Positions 5,194 to 23,986 of a stretch of 24,000 bases of DNA are shown piece after piece (the first letter of the stretch is position 1; every line of letters begins with the position of its first letter). Both the position numbers and the translations under genes were made by a program. The notes beneath the pieces are model-generated. The model searched no databases and was not told the DNA's origin. It saw only the letters and a program-made list of their open reading frames with translations. Source of the DNA: Parachlamydiaceae bacterium (GTDB taxonomy: Bacteria; Chlamydiota; Chlamydiia; Chlamydiales; Parachlamydiaceae); assembly GCA_025451995.1 (NCBI GenBank), contig JANWJE010000060.1, forward strand, positions 1 through 24,000. Direction: 5' to 3'.

Positions 5194-5766
5194 CAAGGAG
5201 GGAGAATCCTTTCGATTGACCCATTGGTGATGGCAGCAGCTCCATTCTTTGGGAGATAATTTAGAGATATAGGATAAAATCCGGGATTTTTCATTTGCAC
5301 CTTCTTCATGGCCTGGATAAAATGTCATACTGATCACGCCTCCTGGAATAATGAGATGTTCGCCCTTTTGAAGGCTTTGAAGGGTTGTTTCCGATTCTGT
5401 GGTCTTTTGTTTGTCTCCTCCAGGCAAATATCCTAAATTATATACAATTAATTTGATGCTTTCAGGTGAAATCTCTTCTGGAAAGGTTGAATGGCAATGT
5501 TTCTTTAAAAAAATATTCCTGTAAATTTCGGGAGATAGGTTAGCTTGCAAGTAATGTTTTGTGGTTTCAATAGCCTCCGCTTGAATATCAAATCCATATA
5601 CTTTACCCTTGTCAACCGATAAGCTCAATTGACATAATTTTAATGTGTCAAAACCCTTTCCACACGTAGCATCGATGACGCTATCTCCTATGTGGACAAT
5701 GTGAGACCAGTAGTGATGAGCTAAATCTAAATGAGATTGAAAAAGGGAAAATTTTGAACGTGTCAT
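5146..5766 (-). CDS. mnmM: YtqB/MnmM-family SAM-dependent methyltransferase (tRNA mnm5s2U34 methyltransferase family)
   Basis: VIDATCGKGFDT, VYGFDIQAEAIETT, NLGYLPGGDKQKTT and FYPGHEEG align with the Bacillus subtilis YtqB sequence as I recall it. The 3' end overlaps the convergent exonuclease gene by 48 nt. Confidence 0.78.
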   Translation of the reverse strand: MTRSKFSLFQSHLDLAHHYWSHIVHIGDSVIDATCGKGFDTLKLCQLSLSVDKGKVYGFDIQAEAIETTKHYLQANLSPEIYRNIFLKKHCHSTFPEEISPESIKLIVYNLGYLPGGDKQKTTESETTLQSLQKGEHLIIPGGVISMTFYPGHEEGANEKSRILSYISKLSPKEWSCCHHQWVNRKDSPSLLILQKRIEANSCLIT

Positions 5767-5774
5767 TAGACCTC

Positions 5775-5820
5775 TTGCATCATTCGCTTTGTTTGAGAAA
5801 AAGAAAAATTTTTGGATAGG
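5775..5820 (+). repeat. Copy A of a roughly 46-nt dispersed repeat (partner at 21319..21364); possible regulatory sequence in a 63-nt divergent promoter gap
   Basis: ttgcatcattcgctttgtttg is identical over 21 nt in both copies. It is followed by the similar agaaaaagaaaaatttttggatagg versus ctaaaatgagagattttttggatgg. Confidence 0.7.
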
Positions 5821-10247: not shown

Positions 10248-10583
10248 ATGAAAACATTTCCATTCAAACCTTCGATGAAAATGCCCTTGCGCAATCGCCC
10301 AAAGGGGTTAAAGCCATTAAAATTTGTCGGGGAATGGATTGTCGCTGACATTTATGTAAGAGGGGACCAGCCTTCACGCTTGGGGATCAAAGTGACAAAA
10401 AAATTTGGCAACTCTCCCAAAAGAAATCGATGCAAGCGATTAATAAGAGAAGCCTTTCGGCTTTCCTTTTCCTCCTTCAAAACTGGATTTGACGTTCTTC
10501 TTCGCCCCCGCTCGAAAGCTGCAGAGGCAAAGATGAGTGATATCCAAAATGAACTTTACTTTTTTATTTCCAACATTTCCTGA
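10248..10583 (+). CDS. rnpA: Ribonuclease P protein component
   Basis: RLGIKVTKKFGNSPKRNRCKRLIREAFR is the RnpA RNR motif region. The start is uncertain: the track uses TTG 10221 inside the 9-mer array, I prefer ATG 10248, and ATG 10278 is also possible. Confidence 0.8.
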   Translation: MKTFPFKPSMKMPLRNRPKGLKPLKFVGEWIVADIYVRGDQPSRLGIKVTKKFGNSPKRNRCKRLIREAFRLSFSSFKTGFDVLLRPRSKAAEAKMSDIQNELYFFISNIS

Positions 10584-12130
10584 TGTTTTGCGGAAAGTTG
10601 ATACACATGCTTGATCGCTTGTATTAAAACTTTTTTATCTGCCAGATGTTTTTTCCAATTTTCTGGAAATTGATCTTGAAATCCTAAAAACACCCCGATA
10701 AGAGCTCCAGCTGCCGCTCCGTTCGTATCAGCATCGCCGCCTTCTTCTGCAAGTCTTTCGATAAGGGTTCTAAAGATTGCCGCTTGATTATCTTTTTGAT
10801 ATTGATCTGCGAGGCGTAAACAATAAAATGCCGATCCCATGCACTTAAACGTGTACCCAATTTTGTTCTGTTTTTCAGAATCATTCCAACCTTCATCCAG
10901 ATCTAAACGTTCCCAATCCCCATGGAGATGGTTCAAAAATTCGGTTTTTACATTTTCAAAAACAATTTCTAGATTTGCCGTCTCTTCAGCAGAAAGAAGA
11001 TTCTCTTCAGCTGCATTTTCAAGCTCTTGGCGTAAAACGGCAAGGCCGGTATCTTCTGCAGCTTTGAATATCTCTTCACAGCTACAGCCTCGTATAGCCA
11101 AGGCTATGGCTATATTGAAAGCAACACAAGAGGCAACGCAGCGCGGATCATAATGGGTGACCTTACAAGCCTCTGTAGAATACTTAACAACATCGTTTAG
11201 GGATCGATAGAAAATCATTCCAACAGGTGATGTTCGCATGAGGGCGCCATTAGCAGCCGGTCTCATGCTTAAAGGGGTCTCAGAGTGATGACTCCAAATC
11301 CTTTTTGAAGTTTGTATGGGATTTTTCAAGAATGTGGGTCTAGATAAGACAGCACCGACCAAAGCGCCCATCCCCATGCAATAGGGGTTGCTACGGCCTT
11401 GAAAAGGTTCTTCCTCTTTTAAACCATAATGAGCCCAGTTCAACAGTTCTTTTGCGAATAAGCTTGAAAATGCAAGAGCGTCTTCATCTTTAGGCATATC
11501 CAATTGCTTAAAAAGGGCTCTTAATAGGCTGAGCGCTTGATCCGTATCGTCAGTCCAACCATTCGTGACGAAGCGTTCAACATGGCCCCAATTGTAAGGG
11601 TTATATAGAAATCTTTTTGGTGCTTCATAGGGATTCAATTCGATGGGTTTCCCATTGATCAATTCGGTCGCTTCAGTTTTACTTGTAAATTCAGTAAAAA
11701 GACCAATGGCATCTCCTAAGGCTTGCCCCATCATCCCCCCGATTTGATGGTTCTTAATCACTCTTGGTTCAACAGCCGGGACAGGGTGGCATTTTTCAAT
11801 GTCAGCAAGGAGTGTTTCAAGAATCGTCAATTTTTTTAAGGAAGCGGCCGTTTTTTCCTCTTCAATGAATGGCATAGAAATACATTCTTTCTTATTTGGC
11901 CAAATCGTGTCTAGAGCGAATTTAAGGCAAATTCCACTAATGCCTACTTTAGCAGCGGACCAAGGGTGTCCTTGAACCAATTGCCAAATACTACATACTA
12001 GAGTGGTCAAAGCAATGGCATTAATTGCAGTTATTTGACTTGAATGTTCGGCAGGTTTTGTAGTAAAGGTTGGAAGAGAGGTCTCGTTTTGTAGTATATT
12101 TTTAATAAATGTCGGCAATGGAAAATTCAT
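10556..12130 (-). CDS. ADP-ribosylglycohydrolase (ARH/DraG family) with a roughly 120-aa hydrophobic N-terminal extension
   Basis: GGMMGQALGDAIGLFTEF, GWTDDTDQALSL and GGDADTNGAAAGALIGVFLG are the ARH metal-binding motifs. The N-terminus has ITAINAIALTTLVCSIWQLV, a QGHPWS loop, then AAKVGISGICLKFAL. The 3' end overlaps rnpA by 28 nt (convergent). Confidence 0.85.
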   Translation of the reverse strand: MNFPLPTFIKNILQNETSLPTFTTKPAEHSSQITAINAIALTTLVCSIWQLVQGHPWSAAKVGISGICLKFALDTIWPNKKECISMPFIEEEKTAASLKKLTILETLLADIEKCHPVPAVEPRVIKNHQIGGMMGQALGDAIGLFTEFTSKTEATELINGKPIELNPYEAPKRFLYNPYNWGHVERFVTNGWTDDTDQALSLLRALFKQLDMPKDEDALAFSSLFAKELLNWAHYGLKEEEPFQGRSNPYCMGMGALVGAVLSRPTFLKNPIQTSKRIWSHHSETPLSMRPAANGALMRTSPVGMIFYRSLNDVVKYSTEACKVTHYDPRCVASCVAFNIAIALAIRGCSCEEIFKAAEDTGLAVLRQELENAAEENLLSAEETANLEIVFENVKTEFLNHLHGDWERLDLDEGWNDSEKQNKIGYTFKCMGSAFYCLRLADQYQKDNQAAIFRTLIERLAEEGGDADTNGAAAGALIGVFLGFQDQFPENWKKHLADKKVLIQAIKHVYQLSAKHQEMLEIKK

Positions 12131-12180: not shown

Positions 12181-12315
12181 TTTATTATTAAATACAACAG
12201 AAACCGCTCGAACAACATCGAAAGTATTACCCAGTGGGCAAAGCTCGTAGTGCGCATCCATGAAGTGGATCCATTACTTTGTTTTTGCGGAACAAGAAAT
12301 TTGATGAGCCCCTAA
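12181..12315 (+). pseudogene. Possible relic of an IS91-family (Y2) transposase C-terminus
   Basis: A single frame reads ...SITQWAKLVVRIHEVDPLLCFCGTRNLMSP-stop. It resembles the conserved W-A-x-L-[IL]-x-[KR]-[VI]-[YF]-E-V-D-P-L-x-C-P-x-C-G segment that I recall near the C-terminus of IS91-like transposases. There is no upstream coding continuation (stop at 12178). Memory-based match. Confidence 0.35.
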
Positions 12316-12327
12316 GACATCTCCCAA

Positions 12328-13578
12328 CTAATTTATGGAACAGATGGATTTCCGGGAGGTATTGTTTATAATTTCTTCGGCTAATTTAATGTATGCAAAT
12401 TTTAAATTGGATTCTATAGTTTTTCGTATATGGGAGGGGAGGTCTTTTTTCTGAAGAAGCTGAAGGCTTAGATCGCGGCATTCTTGAAAATCTCCTTTCC
12501 AATAAGCTGCAACTGAGCATTCAAGAGCTAAATCGTATTGATAGGGAGCCGTCTCCACGAATAATGTATCTTGCGGAAATGGAATGGTCATTCCTAAAGA
12601 GGCTGTTTCATAAGCTTGTTCAAACATGTTTAAACTACGATACAATTTTGCTAAAGCACATAAAGGTTCGGCTCTTGTAGGGCGATAGAAGAAAGCTGTA
12701 TAGAAAGCTTCAATGACTATTTTGGGATCAGCATCAATAGTTTGGTTTAATTTTGCGATTTGATATAGACTATAATAGACTTCTTGATCCCAGCCCCCAG
12801 CTTCGGCTCTTTTTTTATAATTTTCTATAGCAAGTTCAAATTCCCCCGCATCGCGATAAGATTGCGCTAAGTAAAATCTATAACGGACATTATCTGGTTC
12901 TTCTTTTAAAGCTGCCTCTAATACACGTGCATCTTTTAAAAATTTTTGAAGATCGCTAGAACGATGTCCGTCTTTACCGGTTGTGCGATATATATTCACT
13001 AAAGACTCTACCGTTTTACAATCTGGTGAATATAAATACTCATGTAGAACACCGTACCATTTCCAATCAAGAATTGATTTTACTAAGGCAACTCGATCAT
13101 ATTGCAAATTTCCAAAGAGCATAGTCATATCATATCTGTCTTTTTCTAAGTTGGGCCAATAATAGTTATATGAATATTCTAACATTTCATCTGCATCTAT
13201 AAATAATATATAATCTGCTTTACCTTTTGCCAATTCTAATGCCTCATTGCGGTTATAGGCAAAATTGATCCACTGGCTTTCATGTAATTCCCCAGGAATT
13301 TCTTTTAAATATTCTTTGATTATAGTTTGTGTACCATCATTAGATCCAGTATCAACAATGACCCAATAGTCAATAAGGGGTAGAACAGATGCTAAGCAAC
13401 GTGTAATAACGTGACTTTCGTTTTTTACAATCATATTTAGACAGACTCTCTTTTTGTCTATTTTATTGGGAATATCATTCAATGAATCATCTGCAAACGC
13501 CTTAATTGGAATGATTTGATTGCAGGATGCAAATAAGATAAGTAGATAAGTGAATAATACTGTTTGAATTTTAGACAT
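12328..13578 (-). CDS. Family-2 glycosyltransferase fused to TPR repeats, with cleavable-looking signal peptide
   Basis: GT-A core: VCLNMIVKNESHVITRCLASVLPLIDYWVIVDTGSNDGT...ADYILFIDADEMLE (the DAD acts as the DxD motif). C-terminal TPR-like region: YRFYLAQSYRDAGEFELAIENYKKRAE..YYSLYQIAKL. N-terminus MSKIQTVLFTYLLILFASCNQIIPIKAFA/DD, with an A-x-A site. Confidence 0.8.
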   Translation of the reverse strand: MSKIQTVLFTYLLILFASCNQIIPIKAFADDSLNDIPNKIDKKRVCLNMIVKNESHVITRCLASVLPLIDYWVIVDTGSNDGTQTIIKEYLKEIPGELHESQWINFAYNRNEALELAKGKADYILFIDADEMLEYSYNYYWPNLEKDRYDMTMLFGNLQYDRVALVKSILDWKWYGVLHEYLYSPDCKTVESLVNIYRTTGKDGHRSSDLQKFLKDARVLEAALKEEPDNVRYRFYLAQSYRDAGEFELAIENYKKRAEAGGWDQEVYYSLYQIAKLNQTIDADPKIVIEAFYTAFFYRPTRAEPLCALAKLYRSLNMFEQAYETASLGMTIPFPQDTLFVETAPYQYDLALECSVAAYWKGDFQECRDLSLQLLQKKDLPSHIRKTIESNLKFAYIKLAEEIINNTSRKSICSIN

Positions 13579-13774
13579 CTTAAACCCGGTTTATTTGTAA
13601 ATATCGTCAATAATTGATGTTTTTCGTTCCTTACCCGTTAACAATCATCTTAGGAAAAATTTCAGTCCCTAAATTATTAAAGATCTGAATTAAGTATCTA
13701 TAAAAAAAATTTACAAAAAAAATTTTTTTCTTTAAACACCTTTATTGCTGAACAAAATATTAAGGAAAAGGAAC

Positions 13775-14925
<1,151 letters not shown>

Positions 14926-15009
14926 TAAATTTAATTATTCTTTAATAAATTTTTGTGAATTTTAGTAGTTTGTTTTTAATTAATTTCCTGATTATCTTTA
15001 AGGAGTTTT

Positions 15010-15759
15010 ATGTATTGTTTGTTGTTATATTTTATGTCTTTTTGTATTTTTTTAATTCAATCCATAGAAGGAAAGCTAAGGGATGAAGAAAGATACGGAG
15101 AAGAAATTAATAGTCGTTTTATTCTAACATCTGATTTAAAAATTAATTCATTAGTTGATATTCCTTTAAGATCTACTTGGTGGAGTCGAGGCCACGAATA
15201 TGCATGGGCGGCACAATTTGCGGATGCAGACTTAATTGTACTGGATGCTGCATGTGGGATTAGCCATCCATTTAAATGGTATTTAGGTGAAGTTTCATTA
15301 GAAACTTGGGCCTGTGATACCGATCCTCGTATTTCTAAAATGAGTTCTATCATTAAAGAAACTTATGATGACCTCGGAAAAATTGCCTATACTACTCTTA
15401 TTAATAATCCAATTCTTTACAATCAGGTAAAATTAATTAATGCATCAATATGTTCAATGCCAATTAATATGCCTCGATTTGACAGAATTTTTTGTATTTC
15501 TACATTTGAGCATCTCTCGCATAATGATCAAATAAAAGCCATTGCAGAATTTTCACGTCTTTTGACCCCAGATGGCCTTATAATTTTAACAGTAGATTAT
15601 CCTGAAGTTGCTCCCGAAGTATTATTGGAGATTGCAAATTCAGTTGATTTGGTTCCAGCTGGAGAGGTTTTATTGGAACGGCCTTCTAATGACGTTTTAA
15701 CAAATGGTTATTTATCAATTTACAGATGTGTATTAAGACATAAACAAAAAGAAAATTGA
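15010..15759 (+). CDS. Class I SAM-dependent methyltransferase with N-terminal hydrophobic signal/anchor
   Basis: IVLDAACGISHP (motif I-like), FDRIFCISTFEHL and LLTPDGLIILTV. N-terminus MYCLLLYFMSFCIFLIQSIEG. AAGGAG RBS 5 nt upstream. Confidence 0.75.
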   Translation: MYCLLLYFMSFCIFLIQSIEGKLRDEERYGEEINSRFILTSDLKINSLVDIPLRSTWWSRGHEYAWAAQFADADLIVLDAACGISHPFKWYLGEVSLETWACDTDPRISKMSSIIKETYDDLGKIAYTTLINNPILYNQVKLINASICSMPINMPRFDRIFCISTFEHLSHNDQIKAIAEFSRLLTPDGLIILTVDYPEVAPEVLLEIANSVDLVPAGEVLLERPSNDVLTNGYLSIYRCVLRHKQKEN

Positions 15760-16017
15760 TTTAATTATACAGAGACAATTCAATTTAAGATGTTTATTCT
15801 CTAATGACTATGTTCAAAATCTTGCTTATCCTGCCGCTTGCGATCATGCTTATCATGTTAATTTATTAAGGCTAGGTACTTATTTGCGTGATGAGCCATA
15901 ATTAAAAAAAAAATTACGCGGCTCAAAATTCCAAAAACAGTTTCATTAAGACCTGTTCTTATTTATCAAGGTGAATTGTCAAAAGAAGTTTTTGAGAAAT
16001 TATTTTTATATTGCTTA

Positions 16018-16680
16018 TTAGTCTGTTGTATTTTTAGTTAGAAAGATAAATACAGCTTCTGTTTGCAGAGTGTATTTTTGAGGGATAATTTCATAACTAT
16101 AGTCTGGGTACTTTGTAAGATAATCCAAGACATTTCGATGTTTAATTTCAGGATAGATTTGATTTTTAGCGTATAAAGTTGTATAAAGAATAACATAATG
16201 AGGTGAAAAAGAAAAAATATCACTAAGAACTTTTAAATAATCTTCTTCATCGATAATATGATAAAGAACATCAAGACAAACAACTAGATCAAAACATTTA
16301 AACCATTGATTAATAAAATATTTAGGTTCATAAAGCATAAAGCTTTTTGTTTTATCATTTTTAAATTTTTCTGCGCAATTTTTTATACTTGTACGTGAAA
16401 CGTCGATACCGAGGTAGTATGGATATTCAATAAGTCCCAAGTTAAAGCCATCTCCACAACCAAACTCAATAACAGTTTGAATCTCTTTTTTTTTTAAGAA
16501 AATATTTATCGTATCAGCTTTAAATTGAGCTAATTGATTCCTAGAACCTAATCCAGAATTATTTCCTTCTGAGTACCATTTTTCCCACCATTCTTTGTAA
16601 TCAAAAACGGAACTTTCTAATTGAAAACATAATATTAGAATAAAATTAACGAACAACAAATAGTTAAGTTTTTTTTTCAT
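16018..16680 (-). CDS. Class I SAM-dependent methyltransferase with N-terminal signal/anchor
   Basis: VIEFGCGDGFNLG (motif I), YLGIDVS and FDLVVCLDVLYHI. N-terminus MKKKLNYLLFVNFILILCFQLESS. No alternative downstream Met before the catalytic core. Confidence 0.75.
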   Translation of the reverse strand: MKKKLNYLLFVNFILILCFQLESSVFDYKEWWEKWYSEGNNSGLGSRNQLAQFKADTINIFLKKKEIQTVIEFGCGDGFNLGLIEYPYYLGIDVSRTSIKNCAEKFKNDKTKSFMLYEPKYFINQWFKCFDLVVCLDVLYHIIDEEDYLKVLSDIFSFSPHYVILYTTLYAKNQIYPEIKHRNVLDYLTKYPDYSYEIIPQKYTLQTEAVFIFLTKNTTD

Positions 16681-16869
16681 GCAATTAACCTTTGTTAAAT
16701 TTTCAATAGGTTTTTTATTGATACGAATGCTTGCAGATTTTTAAATTTATTTCAATAATTTTATTTAAAACCATTGTTTCAGCAGCGGTTTTTACTGATC
16801 ATTTTTTTTGGCGTAGAAAAGAGCATGGGCACGAGGAACAATTCTTCATCTATCTTTATATAAAAAAAG

Positions 16870-16877
16870 TGTATAAT
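16870..16877 (+). promoter_or_regulatory. Candidate extended -10 element (TGTATAAT) upstream of the HIT-HAD gene
   Basis: tgtataat lies 24 nt upstream of ATG 16901, with AAGGA between them. There is no good -35. Pattern only. Confidence 0.3.
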
Positions 16878-16900
16878 GTATCCTTTTTCTAAAGGAATAA

Positions 16901-18271
16901 ATGATGGTGTCTGGGACTATTTGGTCAAATGGAATTGTGAATTTTAATATTTGTGAAGGGATACCGAGCATTAATTTAACGGATGCTAAACCTTGGCATA
17001 AAGCTACAGAGGAAGAAATTTTATCGTTAGAATCTACAAGCCTAAAAATGCCATACCTAATTCGAGAAGTGTCAGGCATTCCGGACCATGCGATTTGGTC
17101 ATTGCGTAATCAGGAAATAGCTAAACTTATAATTATTTTTGGAAAGTCAAGTAGAAATGCGCCTTTATGTCTCGATGTAGCAAGAAAAGTTGCAATGATG
17201 CAGTTCGCCCTTCAAAAGGGAAGCTTTGAATTAATAAAAATTGACAATGAGACTATTGATGAATTAGCCACAAAAGCGCCGCTGATATTGGATGCACCGA
17301 TTTATGATTGTTCAATAGATTTGAGGAAATATGGATGGAAAAATATTCCACAAGCTATCAGTCTCCTTCAAAAAAGTGTGGCTCTCCCAGAATTATGGGA
17401 AAATCTTTGTGATGCTGATGAAGGGGCAATGGACCCTGCTTGTAAGGTCTTTTGTCATCCATCTATTATTGAAAAGCAACACATTGTATCAACAAAAAAT
17501 TTTCATGTGGTCACCAATGTGACTCCTTATGTTAATTTTCATGTAATGGTAATACCTAAAAAATGCATCAGAAAGTCAAATGAATATTCCAATGAGGAAC
17601 TGTTAGAGAAAAATAAAATAATTCAGAGACTCACATCAATTTTTCTACACCGTTTTAAAGTTCCTATGGTTGGAGCATTGACAAGATTGGGTAGTTTGGG
17701 AGGACAAACACAACCGCATTTACATCATCATATTTTGGGTTTTGATCCAAAGAAGGAACACTTTTGGGTAAGGAATTGGACGGCTGAACTTTTGCAAAAA
17801 GAGGCCTATGATACCGTTTACTTAGAGTCAAATAAACATTTACAATGCATTATCCCCCCTCTTTTTAAGAGAGTTAAAGTTGTAGTTTTTGATTTAGCCT
17901 CAAATTTAATTCAAGAGAGAATTTTGCATTATATCCATAGCTTAAAACACCAAAATTATCGAATTGGTCTTTTGTCAAATACACATGCTACACATTATGT
18001 TTTCAATAAAGAGAAGGCATTGATAGATATTTTTGATTTTGAAATTAATTCTCACCAAACTTCTTTAACAACACTCAATAGAGAGATTTTTGAGAATATC
18101 TGCAGCTTAACAGGTTTAGAGCCTGCTGCACATCTTTTGATTGATGATGTTGAAGAAAATATAGATGCAGCACATGAAATTGGATTTCATGGCATTTTGT
18201 ACAAAGAAGTTGTCATGACAATTGATAATATTGATGAATTGCTTAATAGCAATTCATTAGAAGATATCTAA
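16901..18271 (+). CDS. Three-part protein: unknown N-domain + HIT-family nucleotide hydrolase/transferase + HAD-like hydrolase
   Basis: HIT domain: CKVFCHPSII...FHVMVIPKK...GGQTQPHLHHHILG (histidine triad). HAD-like C-terminus: VVVFDLASNL (motif I with the second Asp replaced), GLLSNT, LLIDDVEENIDAAHEIGFHGI. No signal peptide. Confidence 0.7.
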   Translation: MMVSGTIWSNGIVNFNICEGIPSINLTDAKPWHKATEEEILSLESTSLKMPYLIREVSGIPDHAIWSLRNQEIAKLIIIFGKSSRNAPLCLDVARKVAMMQFALQKGSFELIKIDNETIDELATKAPLILDAPIYDCSIDLRKYGWKNIPQAISLLQKSVALPELWENLCDADEGAMDPACKVFCHPSIIEKQHIVSTKNFHVVTNVTPYVNFHVMVIPKKCIRKSNEYSNEELLEKNKIIQRLTSIFLHRFKVPMVGALTRLGSLGGQTQPHLHHHILGFDPKKEHFWVRNWTAELLQKEAYDTVYLESNKHLQCIIPPLFKRVKVVVFDLASNLIQERILHYIHSLKHQNYRIGLLSNTHATHYVFNKEKALIDIFDFEINSHQTSLTTLNREIFENICSLTGLEPAAHLLIDDVEENIDAAHEIGFHGILYKEVVMTIDNIDELLNSNSLEDI

Positions 18272-18547
18272 AAACAACTGTGCGAATTGAAAAATGCTTA
18301 GAATCAAAAATCTAACAAAAATCGTTGCATCAAAAAGTGGAACTTCCGTTGCAAGAAAGCGCTAAACTGTCGTTTTAGATTTATTCAAAAATTTTTTGTA
18401 AATATTGTAGAAAAAAACATTTGATATTGGCAAAATCTCGAAATTTAGCCTGAATAGAATAACCTGAATTTTGAGTTTATTTCACCCAATTTTTGAAAAA
18501 GTTATTTAAATTAATTTTATTTCTGTGATTTCAAGAAAGAGTATTTT

Positions 18548-19738
18548 GTGTTTAAAAGGATAATTTTTTCGTTAAGTTTGTTGGTGGAATTGACTTTATT
18601 TGCTATTGGCAATGGACCGATTGTGCTCATTGTTGGTACCCGACCGGAAGCAATTAAAGTCATTCCTGTTTATCAAGTGCTAAAATCGGCAGGTTTGCCG
18701 GCGGTGCTTTGTTCTACAGGTCAACATAAAGAACTCCTAGATGATATTTGGGAAATTTTTAATATTAAGCCGGATTTCGATTTTAAGATTATGAAACATA
18801 GTCAAGATCTCTTTTATATCACTGAAGAGGTTATGAGAAAGTCACGCGATGTTTTTGAAAAAATTAAACCCTCACTAGTCATCGTTCAAGGAGATACAAC
18901 AACAGCAATTAGTGCTGCGCTTTCTGCTTTTTATCTGCAAATTCCTGTTGGTCATATTGAAGCTGGTTTGAGAACTGGTAATATTTATGCCCCTTTTCCA
19001 GAAGAACTCAATCGCACGATTATTAGCCGCATTGCTGTTTTAAATTTTGCTCCAACTGAATTTGCTGCTTCAAAACTTCGAAATGAAGGAATAAAGGAAG
19101 ATACAATTTATGTTACCGGAAATACAGTTGTAGATGCCCTTTACTTTATCCGTGACATGATTTCGCTGCGATTAATCAACCCTTCTCCAGCAATAGTCGA
19201 TTTGATACAAAATATAAGGCGAGATCAAGGAGAAATCATGCTCTTAACTGCTCACCGAAGAGAGAGTTTTCAAAAAAGTCTTAAAAAAATTTTTACTGCT
19301 ATAAAGTATTCTTTGATGCAACATCCAAGTCTTCATGTGATTTATCCCATGCATCCCAACCCCATCATAAGAAAAATATTTAATGAGGTGTTTATTGAAC
19401 CAAATGAGCGAATCATTATCCTACAACCACTTCCTTATCAAGAACTAGTTTATTTATTAGATAGGGTTGATGGCGTTGCAACTGATTCTGGTGGAATACA
19501 AGAGGAGGCGATTAGTTTAAATAAAATGACTTTAGTGCTGAGAAATGAAACAGATCGTCCAGAAGGTGTTTTTACAGGAATAGCGACGCTTGTTGGTGAT
19601 GATGAGGATAAAATTATTTCAGGGATCGAACAAATATTCAATATAAAGTCATCACAAATGCAAGGTTCACCCTATGGCGATGGAAATGCAAGTCAAAAAA
19701 TCAAAGAAGTAATTCAAACTTTTTATGAAGGATTATAA
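18548..19738 (+). CDS. wecB: UDP-N-acetylglucosamine 2-epimerase (non-hydrolysing type, WecB/MnaA family)
   Basis: LIVGTRPEAIKV, STGQHKELLD, VIVQGDTTTA, VGHIEAGLRTGN..PFPEE.NR, YVTGNTVVDAL, TDSGGIQEE. The GTG 18548 start (purine-rich aagaaagag upstream) adds the hydrophobic VFKRIIFSLSLLVELTLFAIG. An internal GTG at 18617 (M-LIVGTRPE) would remove it. Confidence 0.88.
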   Translation: MFKRIIFSLSLLVELTLFAIGNGPIVLIVGTRPEAIKVIPVYQVLKSAGLPAVLCSTGQHKELLDDIWEIFNIKPDFDFKIMKHSQDLFYITEEVMRKSRDVFEKIKPSLVIVQGDTTTAISAALSAFYLQIPVGHIEAGLRTGNIYAPFPEELNRTIISRIAVLNFAPTEFAASKLRNEGIKEDTIYVTGNTVVDALYFIRDMISLRLINPSPAIVDLIQNIRRDQGEIMLLTAHRRESFQKSLKKIFTAIKYSLMQHPSLHVIYPMHPNPIIRKIFNEVFIEPNERIIILQPLPYQELVYLLDRVDGVATDSGGIQEEAISLNKMTLVLRNETDRPEGVFTGIATLVGDDEDKIISGIEQIFNIKSSQMQGSPYGDGNASQKIKEVIQTFYEGL

Positions 19739-19744
19739 AAGGAA

Positions 19745-21313
19745 ATGAAAGTAAAATATTTGCTATTTTTATTTTGTTTAACAGCATTTTTGCCACTTTT
19801 TTCAGAGGGTAATAAAAGGGTATTAATTGGTTCACCTATTCGTCAAAAGCCTGCAATTTTGCATGAATTTCTCGAATCTTTAAAACGTCTTGAACAAGAA
19901 GGATATGAAGCTGATTATTTTTTTATTGATGATAATGATGTAGCTGATTCTACATATGAACTTATTGATTTTGCCGACCAATGTGATAAAAATTGCATCA
20001 TTTTAAATCCCGAAGCACAAGTTGATAGAATTCCTTATACATGCAATGAAAATACACACTACTGGAGCGATGCTAACATTTGGAAAGTTGCAGCTTTTAA
20101 AGATACAATCATAGAACATGCGATTGACAAAGAATATGACTATTTATTTTTAATCGATTCAGACATTGTCCTTCACCCAAGAACTATTGTACAACTTATT
20201 GCAACAGAAAAAGATGTTGTTTCAAATATTTTTTGGACATCTTGGCAAAATGGTGCGATAGAACAACCTCAAGTATGGTTATTTGATGAATATACCCAAT
20301 ATCAGGTAATTCCAGGAAATACTATAACTGATGAAATCAAGCGTGAACAAGTGCTTGCGTTTTATCATCAATTAAGGGTGCCCGGCACATATGAAGTTGG
20401 AGGACTTGGGGCTTGTACATTGATTAGCCGCAATGCTTTAACAAAAGGGGCTCGATTTAAAAAAATTTCAAATCTTACTTTTTGGGGAGAAGATCGTCAT
20501 TTTTGTATCCGCGCAGCAGCTTTGGGGCTTTCTCTTTTTGTAGATACCCATTTTCCGGCTTATCATATCTATCGCGAATCAAATTTAATTGGGGTTCCGG
20601 ATTTTATAGCAAACTTTAAACCTCGTGTGACACTTTCGATGGTTGTAAAAAATGAAGCTGATCGATATTTAAGAGAGGTTCTTAGCCATGCCAAAGAATG
20701 CATTACTGATGCAGTGATCATTGATGATTGTAGCGAGGATAATACAATAGAAGTATGTAGGGAAATTCTAAAAGGAATTCCTTTAAAATTAATCCAAAAC
20801 AATCAATCACTTTTCTCAAATGAAGTTAACCTAAGAAAACTCCAATTCGAAGAAACGCTAAAAACTAATCCGGATTGGATTTTGGTACTAGATGCTGATG
20901 AAATATTTGAAGAAAAATTTAAAAGTGAAATTCATAAATTGATATCTAATAAAAATGCGGAAGTTTATTGCTTTAGATTGTATGATTTTTGGGATCAAAA
21001 CCATTATCGTGAAGATACATATTGGCGTGGACATTTAACATATCGTCCATTTCTATTGCGGAACAAATGCGATATAGAATGGACTTGGCTGGAATCGCCC
21101 CAACATTGTGGACGCCTACCTCAAAATATTATTTCTATTCCATGGATTCAATCTCACATGCGTTTGAAACATTTTGGATGGGCAAAAGAAGAAGATCGAA
21201 TTGCAAAATATCAGCGTTATTTGGAATTAGATCCTGGATTTAAATATGGGTGGAAAGAACAATATGAGTCTATAAATGATAAAGAACCAAATCTTATTGA
21301 GTGGGTTGAATAG
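19745..21313 (+). CDS. Two-domain glycosyltransferase with signal peptide (N-terminal GT-A domain with Anp1/Mnn9-like motifs + C-terminal GT2 domain)
   Basis: Signal peptide MKVKYLLFLFCLTAFLPLFSEG. Domain 1: DYFFIDDND...YLFLIDSDIVLHPRTIVQLIATEKDVVSNIFWTSW...GEDRHFCIRA. Domain 2: VTLSMVVKNEADRYLREVL..AVIIDDCSEDNT..WILVLDADEIFEE, paralogous to the GT2 core of 12328..13578. It starts 6 nt after the wecB stop, with an AAAGGA RBS. Confidence 0.78.
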   Translation: MKVKYLLFLFCLTAFLPLFSEGNKRVLIGSPIRQKPAILHEFLESLKRLEQEGYEADYFFIDDNDVADSTYELIDFADQCDKNCIILNPEAQVDRIPYTCNENTHYWSDANIWKVAAFKDTIIEHAIDKEYDYLFLIDSDIVLHPRTIVQLIATEKDVVSNIFWTSWQNGAIEQPQVWLFDEYTQYQVIPGNTITDEIKREQVLAFYHQLRVPGTYEVGGLGACTLISRNALTKGARFKKISNLTFWGEDRHFCIRAAALGLSLFVDTHFPAYHIYRESNLIGVPDFIANFKPRVTLSMVVKNEADRYLREVLSHAKECITDAVIIDDCSEDNTIEVCREILKGIPLKLIQNNQSLFSNEVNLRKLQFEETLKTNPDWILVLDADEIFEEKFKSEIHKLISNKNAEVYCFRLYDFWDQNHYREDTYWRGHLTYRPFLLRNKCDIEWTWLESPQHCGRLPQNIISIPWIQSHMRLKHFGWAKEEDRIAKYQRYLELDPGFKYGWKEQYESINDKEPNLIEWVE

Positions 21314-21318
21314 ACATT

Positions 21319-21364
21319 TTGCATCATTCGCTTTGTTTGCTAAAATGAGAGATTTTTTGGATGG
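21319..21364 (+). repeat. Copy B of the roughly 46-nt dispersed repeat (partner 5775..5820), at the right edge of the glycosylation island
   Basis: ttgcatcattcgctttgtttg is an identical 21-mer in both copies, and the downstream 25 nt are similar. Copy B begins 6 nt after the glycosyltransferase stop. Confidence 0.7.
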
Positions 21365-21440
21365 ATTTATTGCCAAATTGTGAGAGCATATTGAGTTTAA
21401 TATGGTCGAAAAATTTGGCAATAAAGAGGCCAAAAAGATC
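21352..21440. repeat. Imperfect AT-rich palindrome between the glycosyltransferase and uvrD
   Basis: Perfect 13-bp arms ttattgccaaatt (21367-21379) / aatttggcaataa (21412-21424) with a 32-nt spacer. The arms extend imperfectly (about 22/28) to about 21352 and 21440. This symmetry explains why the plus- and minus-strand pseudo-ORFs here look alike. Confidence 0.6.
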
Positions 21441-21512
21441 CATTTTAACAAGCAAATGGAATGATGCAAGATGTCTAATAAAGAGTGTGATTAAGGTAAA
21501 GCAATAAATTGA

Positions 21513-23504
21513 ATGTCTATTTATCATGAGCTTAAATTATTAAATCTCAAACAGTCTGAAGCTGTTAAGAGTGTAGATGGTAGAATTCTCATCTTGGCTG
21601 GTGCTGGAAGCGGTAAAACCAAAGTGCTCACCTTGCGCATGGCCTATCTCATTAAAGAAAAAAATATTTCACCTAAAGCGATCCTTGGTCTCACCTTCAC
21701 TAATAAAGCTGCGGCTGAAATGCGTCAACGCTTGGCCCATTTGATCGACGCTGAAGCTGCTAAACAGGTGACTTTGTCTACTTTTCATAGTTTTTGCATG
21801 CAGATTTTACGCCAAGAAATTCATCATCTTGGCTACACCAAAGAATTTAGCTTGTACGATGAACAAGATGTCCAACGGCTGATTCATCTGATTGTGAGAG
21901 ATATTTTACAGCATGATGGCGAGCTTCCCTCTTTATCCTCGACACTTTCAGCTATTCAACGGGCGAGAAATCAGGGATTAACCCCTGAGCAGCTCAATGA
22001 AGAAAATTGGCATGATGGGTTTGCAAAAGAAGTGTATCGAAGACTTCAAGCGAGCATGAGGGCCTATAACGCGGTCGATTTTGATAATTTACTTGGATTG
22101 AGCGTCGAATTATTCGAAAAATTTCCCGCTGTTTTAGAGAGATTCCAAAATCGCTATCACTACATCATGATTGATGAATACCAAGATACGAATCCCATTC
22201 AATATCGCCTAGCTTCCCTATTAGCTTCAAAACATCAGAACTTATGCGTTGTCGGAGATGATGATCAATCCATTTATGGTTGGCGCGGCGCCGATTTAAA
22301 AAATATATTGCTCTTTGAACAAGCACAATTGATTAAACTTGAGCAGAATTACCGGTCGACGAATTCTATTTTAAAAGCGGCCAATGCTGTCATTCAGAAT
22401 AATCAACAGAGACACCATAAATCGCTCTGGAGTGAAAAAGGAGAAGGAGAAGAGATAGAGGTTTTTCACGCGCCTAATGAACAAGATGAAGCAGAGGCCA
22501 TTGTGAAAAGAATGGTTCAATTAAAAGAGACAAAGGGGCTGAAATGGCGCGACATGGCCATTCTTTATCGCTCAAACGCCTTATCAAGACAATTTGAAAT
22601 CGCCTTAATGAGACAGACTTGGAGAAAAGGGGAGACCTGGGTGCAAGGAATTCCCTATGAAGTTGTCGGCGGGCAAGAATTTTATGAAAGAAGAGAGGTC
22701 AAGGACCTCTGCGCCTATCTTCGTTTAATCGTCAATCCAGCAGATGAGGAAGCGCTCCTTCGCATCGTCAATCAGCCACGCCGGGGGATTGGGGAAGAAA
22801 CTTTAGATCGGTTAACCGAATTTAATAGAAAAAATCACCGCCCCCTTTGGGAAGTGCTCAGTGGAGTTGTGAGGCGCGACCAAGAATTAATGGATTTATG
22901 CCTCTGTGCGAAAGCCTTTCGGGGGATAGAGGATTTTGTGATGTCCATTGAAGAGGCAAAAGAAAAATTCGAACACTCTCCCATCGATGAAACTGTCAAA
23001 TGGTTGATCGCAAGAATTGATTATCAAAGAGCGATTAAAGAAGAGGTGAAAAGTGAACAGATGCGCAATTTTAAAATGGAAAATGTGATGGAATTTGTGA
23101 ATTCTTTTTCCGAAATTAAAAAAGGTGAAGGGGATTCTTTAGCTAACATTCTTGCAGATTTGGCTTTAAACCAGCAATTGTTACAAAAAAATAGAAACAA
23201 GGGAGGGGAAGACCGCGTGAATTTGATGACATTTCATGGGGCTAAAGGTTTGGAATTTCCCGCTTGTTTTCTTGTGGGTCTAGAAGATCACATTATCCCC
23301 CATGAGAAAAGCCTTAAGGAAACCGGTTTGGAAGAGGAGAGGCGCCTCATGTATGTCGCAATCACGAGAGCGCGTCAATATCTTACGCTAAGCATGGCTC
23401 AAAAAAGAAAAAGAATGGGCAAGGAAGAGCAGAGTCGTCCCTCGAGATTCCTACATGAAATCCCAAGGGAATTGCTTCGAATCACCGATTGGAAATTTTT
23501 TTAA
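21513..23504 (+). CDS. uvrD: ATP-dependent DNA helicase, UvrD/PcrA/Rep family (SF1A)
   Basis: LNLKQSEAV, ILAGAGSGKTKVLT (motif I), TFHSFC, IMIDEYQDTN (II), VVGDDDQSIYGWRGA (III), QNYRST, TFHGAKGLEF, MYVAITRARQ (VI). Confidence 0.92.
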   Translation: MSIYHELKLLNLKQSEAVKSVDGRILILAGAGSGKTKVLTLRMAYLIKEKNISPKAILGLTFTNKAAAEMRQRLAHLIDAEAAKQVTLSTFHSFCMQILRQEIHHLGYTKEFSLYDEQDVQRLIHLIVRDILQHDGELPSLSSTLSAIQRARNQGLTPEQLNEENWHDGFAKEVYRRLQASMRAYNAVDFDNLLGLSVELFEKFPAVLERFQNRYHYIMIDEYQDTNPIQYRLASLLASKHQNLCVVGDDDQSIYGWRGADLKNILLFEQAQLIKLEQNYRSTNSILKAANAVIQNNQQRHHKSLWSEKGEGEEIEVFHAPNEQDEAEAIVKRMVQLKETKGLKWRDMAILYRSNALSRQFEIALMRQTWRKGETWVQGIPYEVVGGQEFYERREVKDLCAYLRLIVNPADEEALLRIVNQPRRGIGEETLDRLTEFNRKNHRPLWEVLSGVVRRDQELMDLCLCAKAFRGIEDFVMSIEEAKEKFEHSPIDETVKWLIARIDYQRAIKEEVKSEQMRNFKMENVMEFVNSFSEIKKGEGDSLANILADLALNQQLLQKNRNKGGEDRVNLMTFHGAKGLEFPACFLVGLEDHIIPHEKSLKETGLEEERRLMYVAITRARQYLTLSMAQKRKRMGKEEQSRPSRFLHEIPRELLRITDWKFF

Positions 23505-23533
23505 TTAAAGTAAGTTTAAAAAAGGATTTTTTG

Positions 23534-23986
23534 ATGAATATTAGTAATTACTTTGAAACTATTGCACTTCCCAAAAGTCGTTTGAGTGGAGAACTCGTTG
23601 AGGAAGGTGATATTTTGGCAGGATCTTATGTTGTAAAGGTAAAAATCGTAAAAACAAAGTTTCATTATCCGAATCTTAGAGAAGAAATAATTATTGATAT
23701 TGCCAATAATCAAGTTGTTAGGGTGCGCGAAATGGTAGCTGATCATTTTTCATTTTATCTAACAACTAAAGAAAAAGAACAATTTTGTGAAAAAGTAAAA
23801 GATGACGACATCACCGGTGAACTAATCAGTAGATATGAAACGACTGCCGGTGATAGAAAAGTACATGTCTGTAGACTTACTATTAAACCAACAGTCGGTT
23901 CTTTGCCTAGAATTATCAAAAAAGTGAATGATCAATTTCCGGGAGCGACCGCTGAACCAGATTATATCACCCTGAGTTGCGCATAG
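23534..23986 (+). CDS. Hypothetical protein (no family recognised)
   Basis: The start is set at ATG 23534 (MNISNYFE) with AAGGA upstream. The track TTG 23489 would overlap uvrD. Coding-like composition only. Confidence 0.45.
   Translation: MNISNYFETIALPKSRLSGELVEEGDILAGSYVVKVKIVKTKFHYPNLREEIIIDIANNQVVRVREMVADHFSFYLTTKEKEQFCEKVKDDDITGELISRYETTAGDRKVHVCRLTIKPTVGSLPRIIKKVNDQFPGATAEPDYITLSCA

Follow-up and report, generated by a model that had tools for sequence, protein, structure and literature searches.

Background

In Clostridioides difficile the glycosyltransferase SgtA (CD3350), which combines a GT-A domain with tetratricopeptide repeats (TPR), is encoded immediately upstream of bclA3 and transfers N-acetylglucosamine in vitro as beta-O-GlcNAc from UDP-GlcNAc to the Thr of GPT peptides (PMC7157674). 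In Priestia (Bacillus) megaterium the fibre of the exosporium nap is BclA1, a protein of 954 amino acids (aa) with a 159-aa N-domain, 220 GxT repeats and a C-terminal domain of ~135 aa; the enzymes encoded at the flanks of bclA1 are not mentioned in the paper on this protein (PMC4674009). Here we surveyed a stretch of 24,000 nucleotides (nt) from a Parachlamydiaceae bacterium (GCA_025451995.1, contig JANWJE010000060.1, positions 1 to 24,000), called the window below, in which an island of seven genes brings together a Gly-x-Thr collagen-like protein and six enzymes. The components of such a system and the logic of collagen Thr glycosylation are already known from SgtA/BclA3 and from BclA, and no literature on collagen-like proteins in Chlamydiae was found.

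With somewhat better than even confidence, the island is read as encoding a secreted trimeric collagen-like protein together with the enzymes that would O-glycosylate the Thr residues of its Gly-x-Thr triplets with a short, methylated glycan containing N-acetylhexosamine. The observations behind this reading are the gene content, the homologies of the enzymes, the linkage of their genes and a set of lineage-specific N-terminal extensions.

Features of the island

All seven genes have open reading frames (ORFs) where the first-pass annotation, a reading of the letters without database searches, had placed them, and its domain assignments were borne out by Pfam and NCBIfam. The features are as follows, where GT stands for glycosyltransferase, GT2 for its family 2 and SAM for S-adenosylmethionine.

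12328-13578, minus strand: GT2-TPR protein glycosyltransferase, 416 aa; Pfam Glycos_transf_2 at 4e-13 and TPR_17/19/16/14
13579-13774: spacer between the divergent GT2-TPR and collagen-like genes; from the gene layout, presumably holds a promoter region for both
13775-14875, plus strand: collagen-like protein, 366 aa from the ATG; Pfam Collagen at 2.5e-10
14579-14872 (aa 269-366), plus strand: collagen tract, repeat family D1, GPT/GAT/GGT; presumed O-glycosylation sites
15010-15759, plus strand: SAM methyltransferase MT1, 249 aa; Methyltransf_11 at 3e-9; N-terminal hydrophobic extension
16018-16680, minus strand: SAM methyltransferase MT2, 220 aa; Methyltransf_12/23; a class I SAM methyltransferase like MT1
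16901-18271, plus strand: HIT-HAD fusion, 456 aa; HIT at 9e-10 and HAD_2 at 2e-5
18548-19738, plus strand: WecB-type non-hydrolysing UDP-GlcNAc 2-epimerase, 396 aa; Epimerase_2 at 4e-97
19745-21313, plus strand: two-domain glycosyltransferase, 522 aa; Anp1-like N-domain at 9e-8 and Glycos_transf_2 at 9e-14
21306-21482: nested inverted repeats I1 and I2 with arms of 42 nt each, between the stop of the two-domain GT gene and the start of uvrD

Comparison with the bclA1 locus

On plasmid pBM500 of P. megaterium QM B1551 two methyltransferase genes are followed by those of BclA1, GT2-TPR and the two-domain GT, and bclA1 and the GT2-TPR gene are divergent, as they are in the window. Four of the six island enzymes thus have homologues around a G-x-Thr collagen gene, with identities of 43% for MT1, 51.5% for MT2, 30% (E 2e-23) for the GT2-TPR enzyme and 55-57% for the two-domain GT. 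Judged by homology, five of the seven island genes, namely the collagen gene and these four enzyme genes, are a cassette which is also found at a bclA locus. Neither WecB nor HIT-HAD was found in the pBM500 stretch examined. The two loci differ in other ways as well: the Priestia enzymes work in the cytoplasm of the mother cell and have no hydrophobic extension at the N-terminus, and Priestia is a spore former while chlamydiae make no spores.

The GT2-TPR enzyme and its linkage to collagen genes

The GT2-TPR protein starts with a hydrophobic signal-like peptide, in which LFASC may be a lipobox, and continues with a GT-A domain and, at the C-terminus, TPRs. The DAD motif (D128-A-D130) of the GT-A domain, which is matched by PF00535 at 4e-13, is invariant in the family alignment A1, and TPR_17 reached 25.5 bits (cutoff 24.4), several more TPR families coming close to threshold. 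Its best NCBIfam match is SunS, and a profile search of PDB gave GmaR (2.3e-14), SunS (1e-13) and a ThuS-like chain (3.5e-8), besides TPR proteins; the alignment to GmaR and SunS covers about the first 250 residues, which take in the GT domain and some of the helical region. These closest solved structures by sequence, GmaR being the O-GlcNAc transferase of Listeria flagellin and SunS and ThuS being peptide S-glycosyltransferases, modify proteins or peptides directly from nucleotide sugars, but they are cytoplasmic and have other substrates (flagellin, and the Cys of a lantipeptide-like peptide). The likeness to SgtA is one of description, in the domain architecture and in the adjacent GPT-rich collagen gene, and SgtA differs in being a cytoplasmic protein of 358 aa for which no signal peptide is described. 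In the window the GT2-TPR gene adjoins the gene of its presumed substrate, in divergent orientation and at a distance of 196 nt.

The GT2-TPR family is very large (>7,300 matches at E<1e-5). Its alignment was scanned against one genome per GTDB species, which gave 80 loci from Chlamydiota, Betaproteobacteria, Polyangiaceae, Flavobacteriia, Acidobacteriota and others, and four further loci were added to make 84. A collagen ORF was counted when it held at least 8 consecutive G-x-y triplets. Such ORFs were found at 35 of the 84 loci and are mostly rich in GAT/GPT, with Thr in Y in a fraction of 0.3-1.0 of the triplets. Their number per 100 kb falls with the distance from the GT gene, from 15 within 1 kb to 4.8 at 1-2 kb, 1.5 at 2-4 kb and 0.6 at 4-10 kb, and the density of G-x-Thr collagen ORFs is hence 25-fold greater within 1 kb of GT2-TPR than at 4-10 kb. 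Viral loci of the family (IMG/VR; giant-virus metagenome-assembled genomes (MAGs) and jumbo phages) have a collagen ORF at 30 of 80, with enrichment within 2 kb. In L004, the nearest homologue whose surrounding DNA could be retrieved (61% identity), an Anp1-type GT gene, the GT2-TPR gene and two collagen genes stand in a row, and Protochlamydia naegleriophila KNic (L001, LN879502.1; 57%) has a collagen gene (7271-8371 of L001), a fusion of Anp1, GT and methyltransferase parts, and GT2-TPR (PNK_1450). By comparative genomics, the pairing of a collagen-like protein with a dedicated, putatively protein-type glycosyltransferase is well supported.

Some further features of the family were recorded. 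Viral GT2-TPR proteins (L140-L219, e.g. L174, L188, L194, L209 and L213; phage PP885688.1), which occur commonly in giant-virus MAGs and jumbo phages, are 35-44% identical to the window protein, and G-x-Thr collagen ORFs of up to 162 triplets and >90% Thr in Y often lie 1-2 kb from them. Two or three tandem GT2-TPR paralogues, with 35-53% identity to the window protein, are frequent in chlamydial genomes (L007, L010, L011, L013, L042, L050 and L059), which suggests a lineage-specific expansion of a putatively exported enzyme. In P. naegleriophila a GMC oxidoreductase and a DegT-type sugar aminotransferase are encoded side by side at 12858-15614 of L001, ~1.7 kb downstream of the trio, a pairing which presumably recalls that of Mimivirus R135 (GMC-type fibril protein) with L136 (viosamine aminotransferase).

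The collagen-like protein

The ORF of the collagen-like protein holds 31 G-x-y triplets, of which 19 have Thr in the Y position, exactly as had been counted earlier, and these form three runs of 13, 6 and 12 triplets interrupted by EE and GA. An alternative TTG start is present at 13745. From the N-terminus the protein has a signal-like segment, an N-domain of ~200 aa, a Lys-rich helix at aa ~249-270 and the collagen tail; a single-sequence AlphaFold model, though poor (predicted local distance difference test, pLDDT, of 35), shows the helix that precedes the collagen tract. The N-domain carries repeats resembling beta-propeller blades, and a word-indexed search with it gave no matches. In matches of the N-domain (13880-14300, aa ~35-175) the proteins hit are of ~430 or ~840 aa with 3-12 repeated stretches, and weak signals of the Lactonase, SBBP and BNR_4 beta-propeller families were seen. 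As an idea only, two or three blades per chain could make up a six-bladed propeller in a trimer.

The tract of 31 triplets without a C-terminal domain differs from the 220 repeats and C-domain of Priestia BclA1. Other chlamydial collagen proteins which were compared have a signal peptide, a His/Lys-rich stretch, a collagen region and a C-terminal domain of ~130 aa; a single one of these C-domains gave a weak match to BclA_C (L031, 2.2e-7), and a PDB sequence search with them gave no match. The analogy with BclA that was drawn in the first-pass annotation holds for the G-x-Thr tract and for the locus-level homology with bclA1 of pBM500, and fails for the TNF/C1q-like C-terminal domain of BclA (BclA_C), which is absent here.

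N-terminal extensions of the enzymes

A short charged stretch and then 10-15 hydrophobic residues open six of the seven island proteins, HIT-HAD being the exception; this feature had gone unmentioned in the first-pass annotation. Small residues are frequent at -3/-1 (e.g. SFAFA followed by ETKR in P0124), which together with the distribution of charges is Sec-like, and the N-terminus of MT2, MKKK and then a hydrophobic run, has the appearance of a classic signal peptide; the extensions look like Sec-type signals. For GT2-TPR the extension is present at 34 of the 37 Chlamydiota-labelled loci (0 without, 3 ambiguous), at 1 of 34 in other phyla and at 2 of 68 in viruses. Among homologues of the two-domain GT, 60 have it, with a median of 32 residues before the conserved GSPxxQKP, and 38 are without it (median 10), all named ones among the latter being from Bacillales. 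MT1 and MT2 carry it in the window and lack it in their Priestia orthologues. The WecB protein of the window and its L085 orthologue have ~24 hydrophobic residues before the conserved GTRPEAIK start, in a comparison that covers chlamydial proteins only. With this putative export signal the window GT2-TPR is unlike SgtA, GmaR and SunS, which are cytoplasmic enzymes. An origin of the signal anchors from eukaryotes or giant viruses (Golgi-type) was ruled out, as 66 of the 68 viral homologues are without the extension.

The extensions suggest that glycosylation in the chlamydial cassette is extracytoplasmic. Because the chlamydial enzymes carry these putative Sec-type signal peptides, modification would most likely take place after export, in the periplasm or in the inclusion lumen, and nucleotide sugar and SAM would therefore be needed outside the bacterial cytoplasm, possibly from the host. 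A precedent for nucleotide-sugar enzymes which work on host donors outside the bacterial cytoplasm is the luminal glycogen of Chlamydia trachomatis, where secreted GlgA uses host UDP-glucose imported by SLC35D2 (PMC4829429). The enzymes of that system differ in being type III substrates without a Sec signal, make a polysaccharide and not a glycoprotein, and share no homology with those of the island.

The two-domain glycosyltransferase and the remaining enzymes

The two-domain GT has a signal peptide and two GT-A domains, with a DSD motif at 138-140 and a DAD motif at 383-385, both of which are invariant in alignment A2. Proteins of spore-forming Bacillales (Priestia, Paenibacillus, Sporosarcina, Peribacillus and Brevibacillus) share 50-57% identity with it. 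Its AlphaFold model (pLDDT 88.6) gave human COLGALT1 (GLT25D1, the collagen hydroxylysine galactosyltransferase) as the top Foldseek match (E 7.5e-18, template-modelling score 0.39, 15% identity), and the tandem GT-A polysaccharide polymerases K4CP and heparosan synthase followed with scores close behind. COLGALT1 aligns with it over ~500 columns and has tandem GT-A domains; it acts on collagen in an extracytoplasmic compartment, the endoplasmic reticulum, which it reaches by signal-peptide targeting, and it differs in the orientation of the domains and in its acceptor, which is hydroxylysine and not Thr. A weak match to COLGALT1 was also given by phmmer (E 3e-3 over 65 residues), and no match to GT25 (PF01755) was found. 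This modelled likeness is treated as resemblance and not as membership.

The epimerase is of the WecB type, with 369 bits for TIGR00236 against a cutoff of 210 and 70.6 for the NeuC model against 235.9. Its pairing with the two-domain GT is kept in L085 and L220-L223 at 57-66% identity, and in the four closest chlamydial contexts (L085, L220/221, L222 and L223; two-domain GT 62-65%) WecB always adjoins the two-domain GT. An MT1 orthologue (46% identity) joins the two in L222. The block seen in L085 and L220-L222 runs from genes of RmlA-like, RmlB-like, Wzm, Wzt, GT2 and Wzy_C proteins through patatin and PrmA to WecB and the two-domain GT and then to RsgA, SpoU, poly(A) polymerase and MutL, and the WecB-GT pair of the window has left the backbone position which it holds in related Parachlamydiaceae.

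MT2 is 31% identical to the methyltransferase domain of the P. naegleriophila fusion, and in P0193 (729 aa, ENA metagenome) an MT1-like methyltransferase is naturally fused to the C-terminus of the two-domain GT; these two fusions tie the methyltransferases to the GTs. Another fusion, P0128 (861 aa, Chlamydiia), joins the two-domain GT to a further C-terminal domain of ~330 aa without an assigned type. HIT-HAD has the histidine-triad motif HLHHHIL, a YihX-like HAD phosphatase domain and no signal peptide; in PDB its HAD part matched the glucose-1-phosphate phosphatase YihX (3.8e-7) and its HIT part matched generic HIT proteins. A link of HIT-HAD to the pathway is a guess.

Proposed pathway and alternative explanations

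In the proposed pathway the collagen-like protein would be exported, and GT2-TPR would bind the unfolded G-x-T chain with its TPR domain and attach the first sugar to Thr, with a UDP-sugar as donor, as SgtA does on BclA3. The two-domain GT would then add further residues, one for each GT-A domain, while WecB would make UDP-N-acetylmannosamine (UDP-ManNAc) from UDP-GlcNAc for extension of the glycan, MT1 and MT2 would O-methylate it, and HIT-HAD may act in the cytoplasm on a by-product, either a nucleotide or a sugar-phosphate. The chain would trimerise through its helical neck and form a stalk of ~27 nm (an estimate from 93 residues x 0.29 nm) that bears the N-domain. Glycosylated Thr in Y stabilises collagen helices without hydroxyproline, as in the cuticle collagen of Riftia, and the glycans of BclA contain methylated sugars. 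The acceptor, the sugars, the compartment and the formation of a fibre we infer from the genes and their homologues. That the protein serves the infectious particle in attaching to, or being taken up by, amoebae is speculation. A bolder version, which we hold to be doubtful, is that the whole pathway (GT2-TPR, tandem GT-A extender, epimerase and two methyltransferases) moved out of the cytoplasm by means of Sec signals, and draws there, in the periplasm or the lumen of the inclusion, on UDP-GlcNAc and SAM of the host to coat the infectious particle with glycosylated collagen fibres.

Several observations weigh against the glycosylated-fibre reading. Glycosylation and fibre are predictions from genes, and the signal-like peptides were judged by hydrophobicity, charge and eye; moreover, nucleotide sugars, which GT-A enzymes require, are to our knowledge not known in the bacterial periplasm. 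The collagen ORF stops right after the last triplet, 135 nt before the next gene, with no match to BclA_C, unlike all compared chlamydial and Bacillus collagen proteins, in which a C-terminal globular domain is present. A full HMMER search with the N-domain gave 77 weak matches, the best at 7e-19, with multi-stretch matches to aa 60-140. A collagen ORF is nearby at 6 of the 37 Chlamydiota-labelled GT2-TPR loci as against 21 of 34 in other phyla, and the neighbours of chlamydial GT2-TPR genes are heterogeneous, tandem GT2-TPR paralogues being their sole recurrent feature. For the WecB/two-domain GT pair, no collagen or GT2-TPR gene was found within 10 kb in the four chlamydial relatives, and in three of these four the pair lies 2.5-4 kb from the cluster of RmlA/RmlB-like, Wzm, Wzt, GT2 and Wzy_C genes. 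No homologue of HIT-HAD was found in any related locus by tblastn or in the metagenome scan. The claim of one dedicated glycan island, made in the first-pass annotation, is partly supported, by the GT2-TPR/collagen pair and the cassette shared with pBM500, and is weakened by the WecB/two-domain GT pairs without collagen in relatives and by the unlinked HIT-HAD. Enzymes of the island near Wz-type genes and without a collagen gene, which that annotation had named as evidence against its own view, are nearly what the WecB/two-domain GT sub-module presents in the chlamydial relatives.

Three other explanations were weighed. The island may be two unrelated modules, in which GT2-TPR and the collagen gene form one and WecB, the two-domain GT and MT1 (perhaps with MT2 and HIT-HAD) serve lipopolysaccharide or lipooligosaccharide, an O-antigen-like polymer or another envelope glycan. 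This is what L085, L220/221, L222 and L223 point to, which keep WecB and the two-domain GT (57-68% identity, with MT1 in L222) away from collagen and GT2-TPR genes and, in three cases, near the Wzm/Wzt cluster; the two-domain GT is also never near a collagen ORF in 50 viral loci, and the match of its fold to K4CP and heparosan synthase is in line with a polysaccharide product. On the other hand, bclA1 and its GT2-TPR gene in pBM500 lie between the two methyltransferase genes on one side and the two-domain GT gene on the other, an Anp1-type GT stands between or beside the collagen and GT2-TPR genes in P. naegleriophila and L004, and a low GC content at third codon positions (GC3) is common to all island genes. 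Signal peptides on WecB and the GT also do not fit a cytoplasmic Wzm/Wzt pathway, and in the relatives the patatin and PrmA genes stand between the pair and the Wzm/Wzt cluster. Two separate modules are on the whole rather unlikely in our view.

We consider it improbable that the exported GTs are host-directed effectors, released through Sec (perhaps type II) secretion and acting with host UDP-sugars on targets of the host or inclusion, with the collagen protein as a separate adhesin or scaffold. The signal peptides are indeed lineage-specific for chlamydiae, GT2-TPR genes in chlamydiae mostly stand alone or as tandem duplicates away from collagen genes, a TPR domain can have many binding partners, the gene next door encodes an ADP-ribosylglycohydrolase whose N-terminal part has a hydrophobic segment, and secreted chlamydial sugar-nucleotide enzymes have a precedent (PMC4829429). 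Yet GT2-TPR adjoins collagen genes in the window, in L004 and in P. naegleriophila, which are the homologues with readable flanks, the linkage to G-x-T collagen is family-wide across phyla and viruses, and no host-targeting domain was found. A decaying remnant of horizontal acquisition, with a truncated collagen gene that has lost its C-terminal domain and a system that no longer functions, is more improbable again, to the point that we give it hardly any weight: the end of the collagen ORF within the repeat, the atypical composition and the nearly orphan N-domain are what it would predict, but all seven ORFs are intact and of full length relative to homologues, the catalytic DxD and HIT motifs are kept, the signal-like N-terminal extensions are retained, and the collagen tract stays in frame over 31 triplets after a predicted helix that could be a trimerisation neck.

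Composition and flanks

The island is AT-richer than its surroundings, as had been proposed from spot counts, with a GC content of 0.331 against 0.395 in the flanks, a modest but genuine break. GC3 is 0.16-0.27 in the island genes and 0.30-0.44 in the flanking housekeeping genes, with orf165 as the exception at 0.235. This ORF (23489-23986, plus strand, 165 aa) overlaps the stop of uvrD and has no Pfam family, and its GC3 is island-like though it lies outside the island. Core genes make up the flanks, with murB, nusB, an rRNA methylase, rpsN (S14) and rnpA on the left and uvrD on the right; the immediate left neighbours are rpsN, rnpA and an ADP-ribosylglycohydrolase, followed by an AT-rich spacer of 197 nt. 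On account of its low GC3 and its placement amid housekeeping genes, the cassette looks horizontally acquired.

No flippase Wzx, polymerase Wzy or priming transferase is in view, in agreement with the earlier annotation: the domain scan of window ORFs of at least 80 aa found no Wzx, Wzy, WecA, Wzm/Wzt or ABC exporter domains, and the window does not have the make-up of an O-antigen or capsule locus. The IS91-like relic that had been proposed as the left boundary was rejected, since a Pfam search of the left flank at E up to 1 matched S14, RnpA and the ADP-ribosylglycohydrolase alone. On the right side, the dispersed repeat of the earlier annotation exists as the nested 42-nt inverted repeats at 21306-21482, of which only a 21-nt piece recurs; this palindromic piece lies at 5765-5795, in the spacer between the rRNA-methylase and FAD-oxidoreductase genes, and the two sites may represent a small dispersed palindromic element. 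As for hallmarks of mobile elements, no tRNA or Rfam family was found in the window (repeats included) and no direct repeats border the island. Promoter and terminator scans of the window gave nothing above the shuffled expectation.

The ADP-ribosylglycohydrolase gene (10556-12130, minus strand; PF03747 at 2e-49) has a GC content of 0.413, which is the backbone value and not that of the island. Its product has an N-terminal extension of ~130 aa with a hydrophobic segment at aa 33-53 and possibly a second one after it. This N-terminus recalls an Inc-type membrane anchor, and the protein may be a secreted or membrane effector.

Meaning of the findings

Three aspects appear to be new, which are the occurrence of the cassette in Chlamydiota, the breadth of the GT2-TPR/G-x-T collagen module including giant-virus MAGs, and the putative lineage-wide gain of export signals on the island enzymes other than HIT-HAD. 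Thr-glycosylated collagen-like fibres are known from the spores of Bacillus and Clostridioides, and the enzyme set is now seen in an obligate intracellular lineage that does not sporulate. The pair of GT2-TPR and G-x-Thr collagen is a module common to many bacterial phyla, jumbo phages and giant-virus MAGs. As the enzymes which extend the C. difficile glycan are not yet known, the island enzymes are candidates for the glycan-extending steps on BclA-type proteins.

P. naegleriophila is cultivable and carries the trio of collagen, GT and GT2-TPR genes, which makes the idea testable. If the signal peptides are functional, soluble GT-A enzymes, a WecB epimerase and SAM methyltransferases would be placed outside the cytoplasm, which is unusual for bacteria, and host nucleotide sugars and SAM would be used in the periplasm or inclusion. 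If the bolder version is true, the collagen fibre coat of these chlamydiae would be functionally analogous to the nap of spores or to the fibrils of giant viruses.

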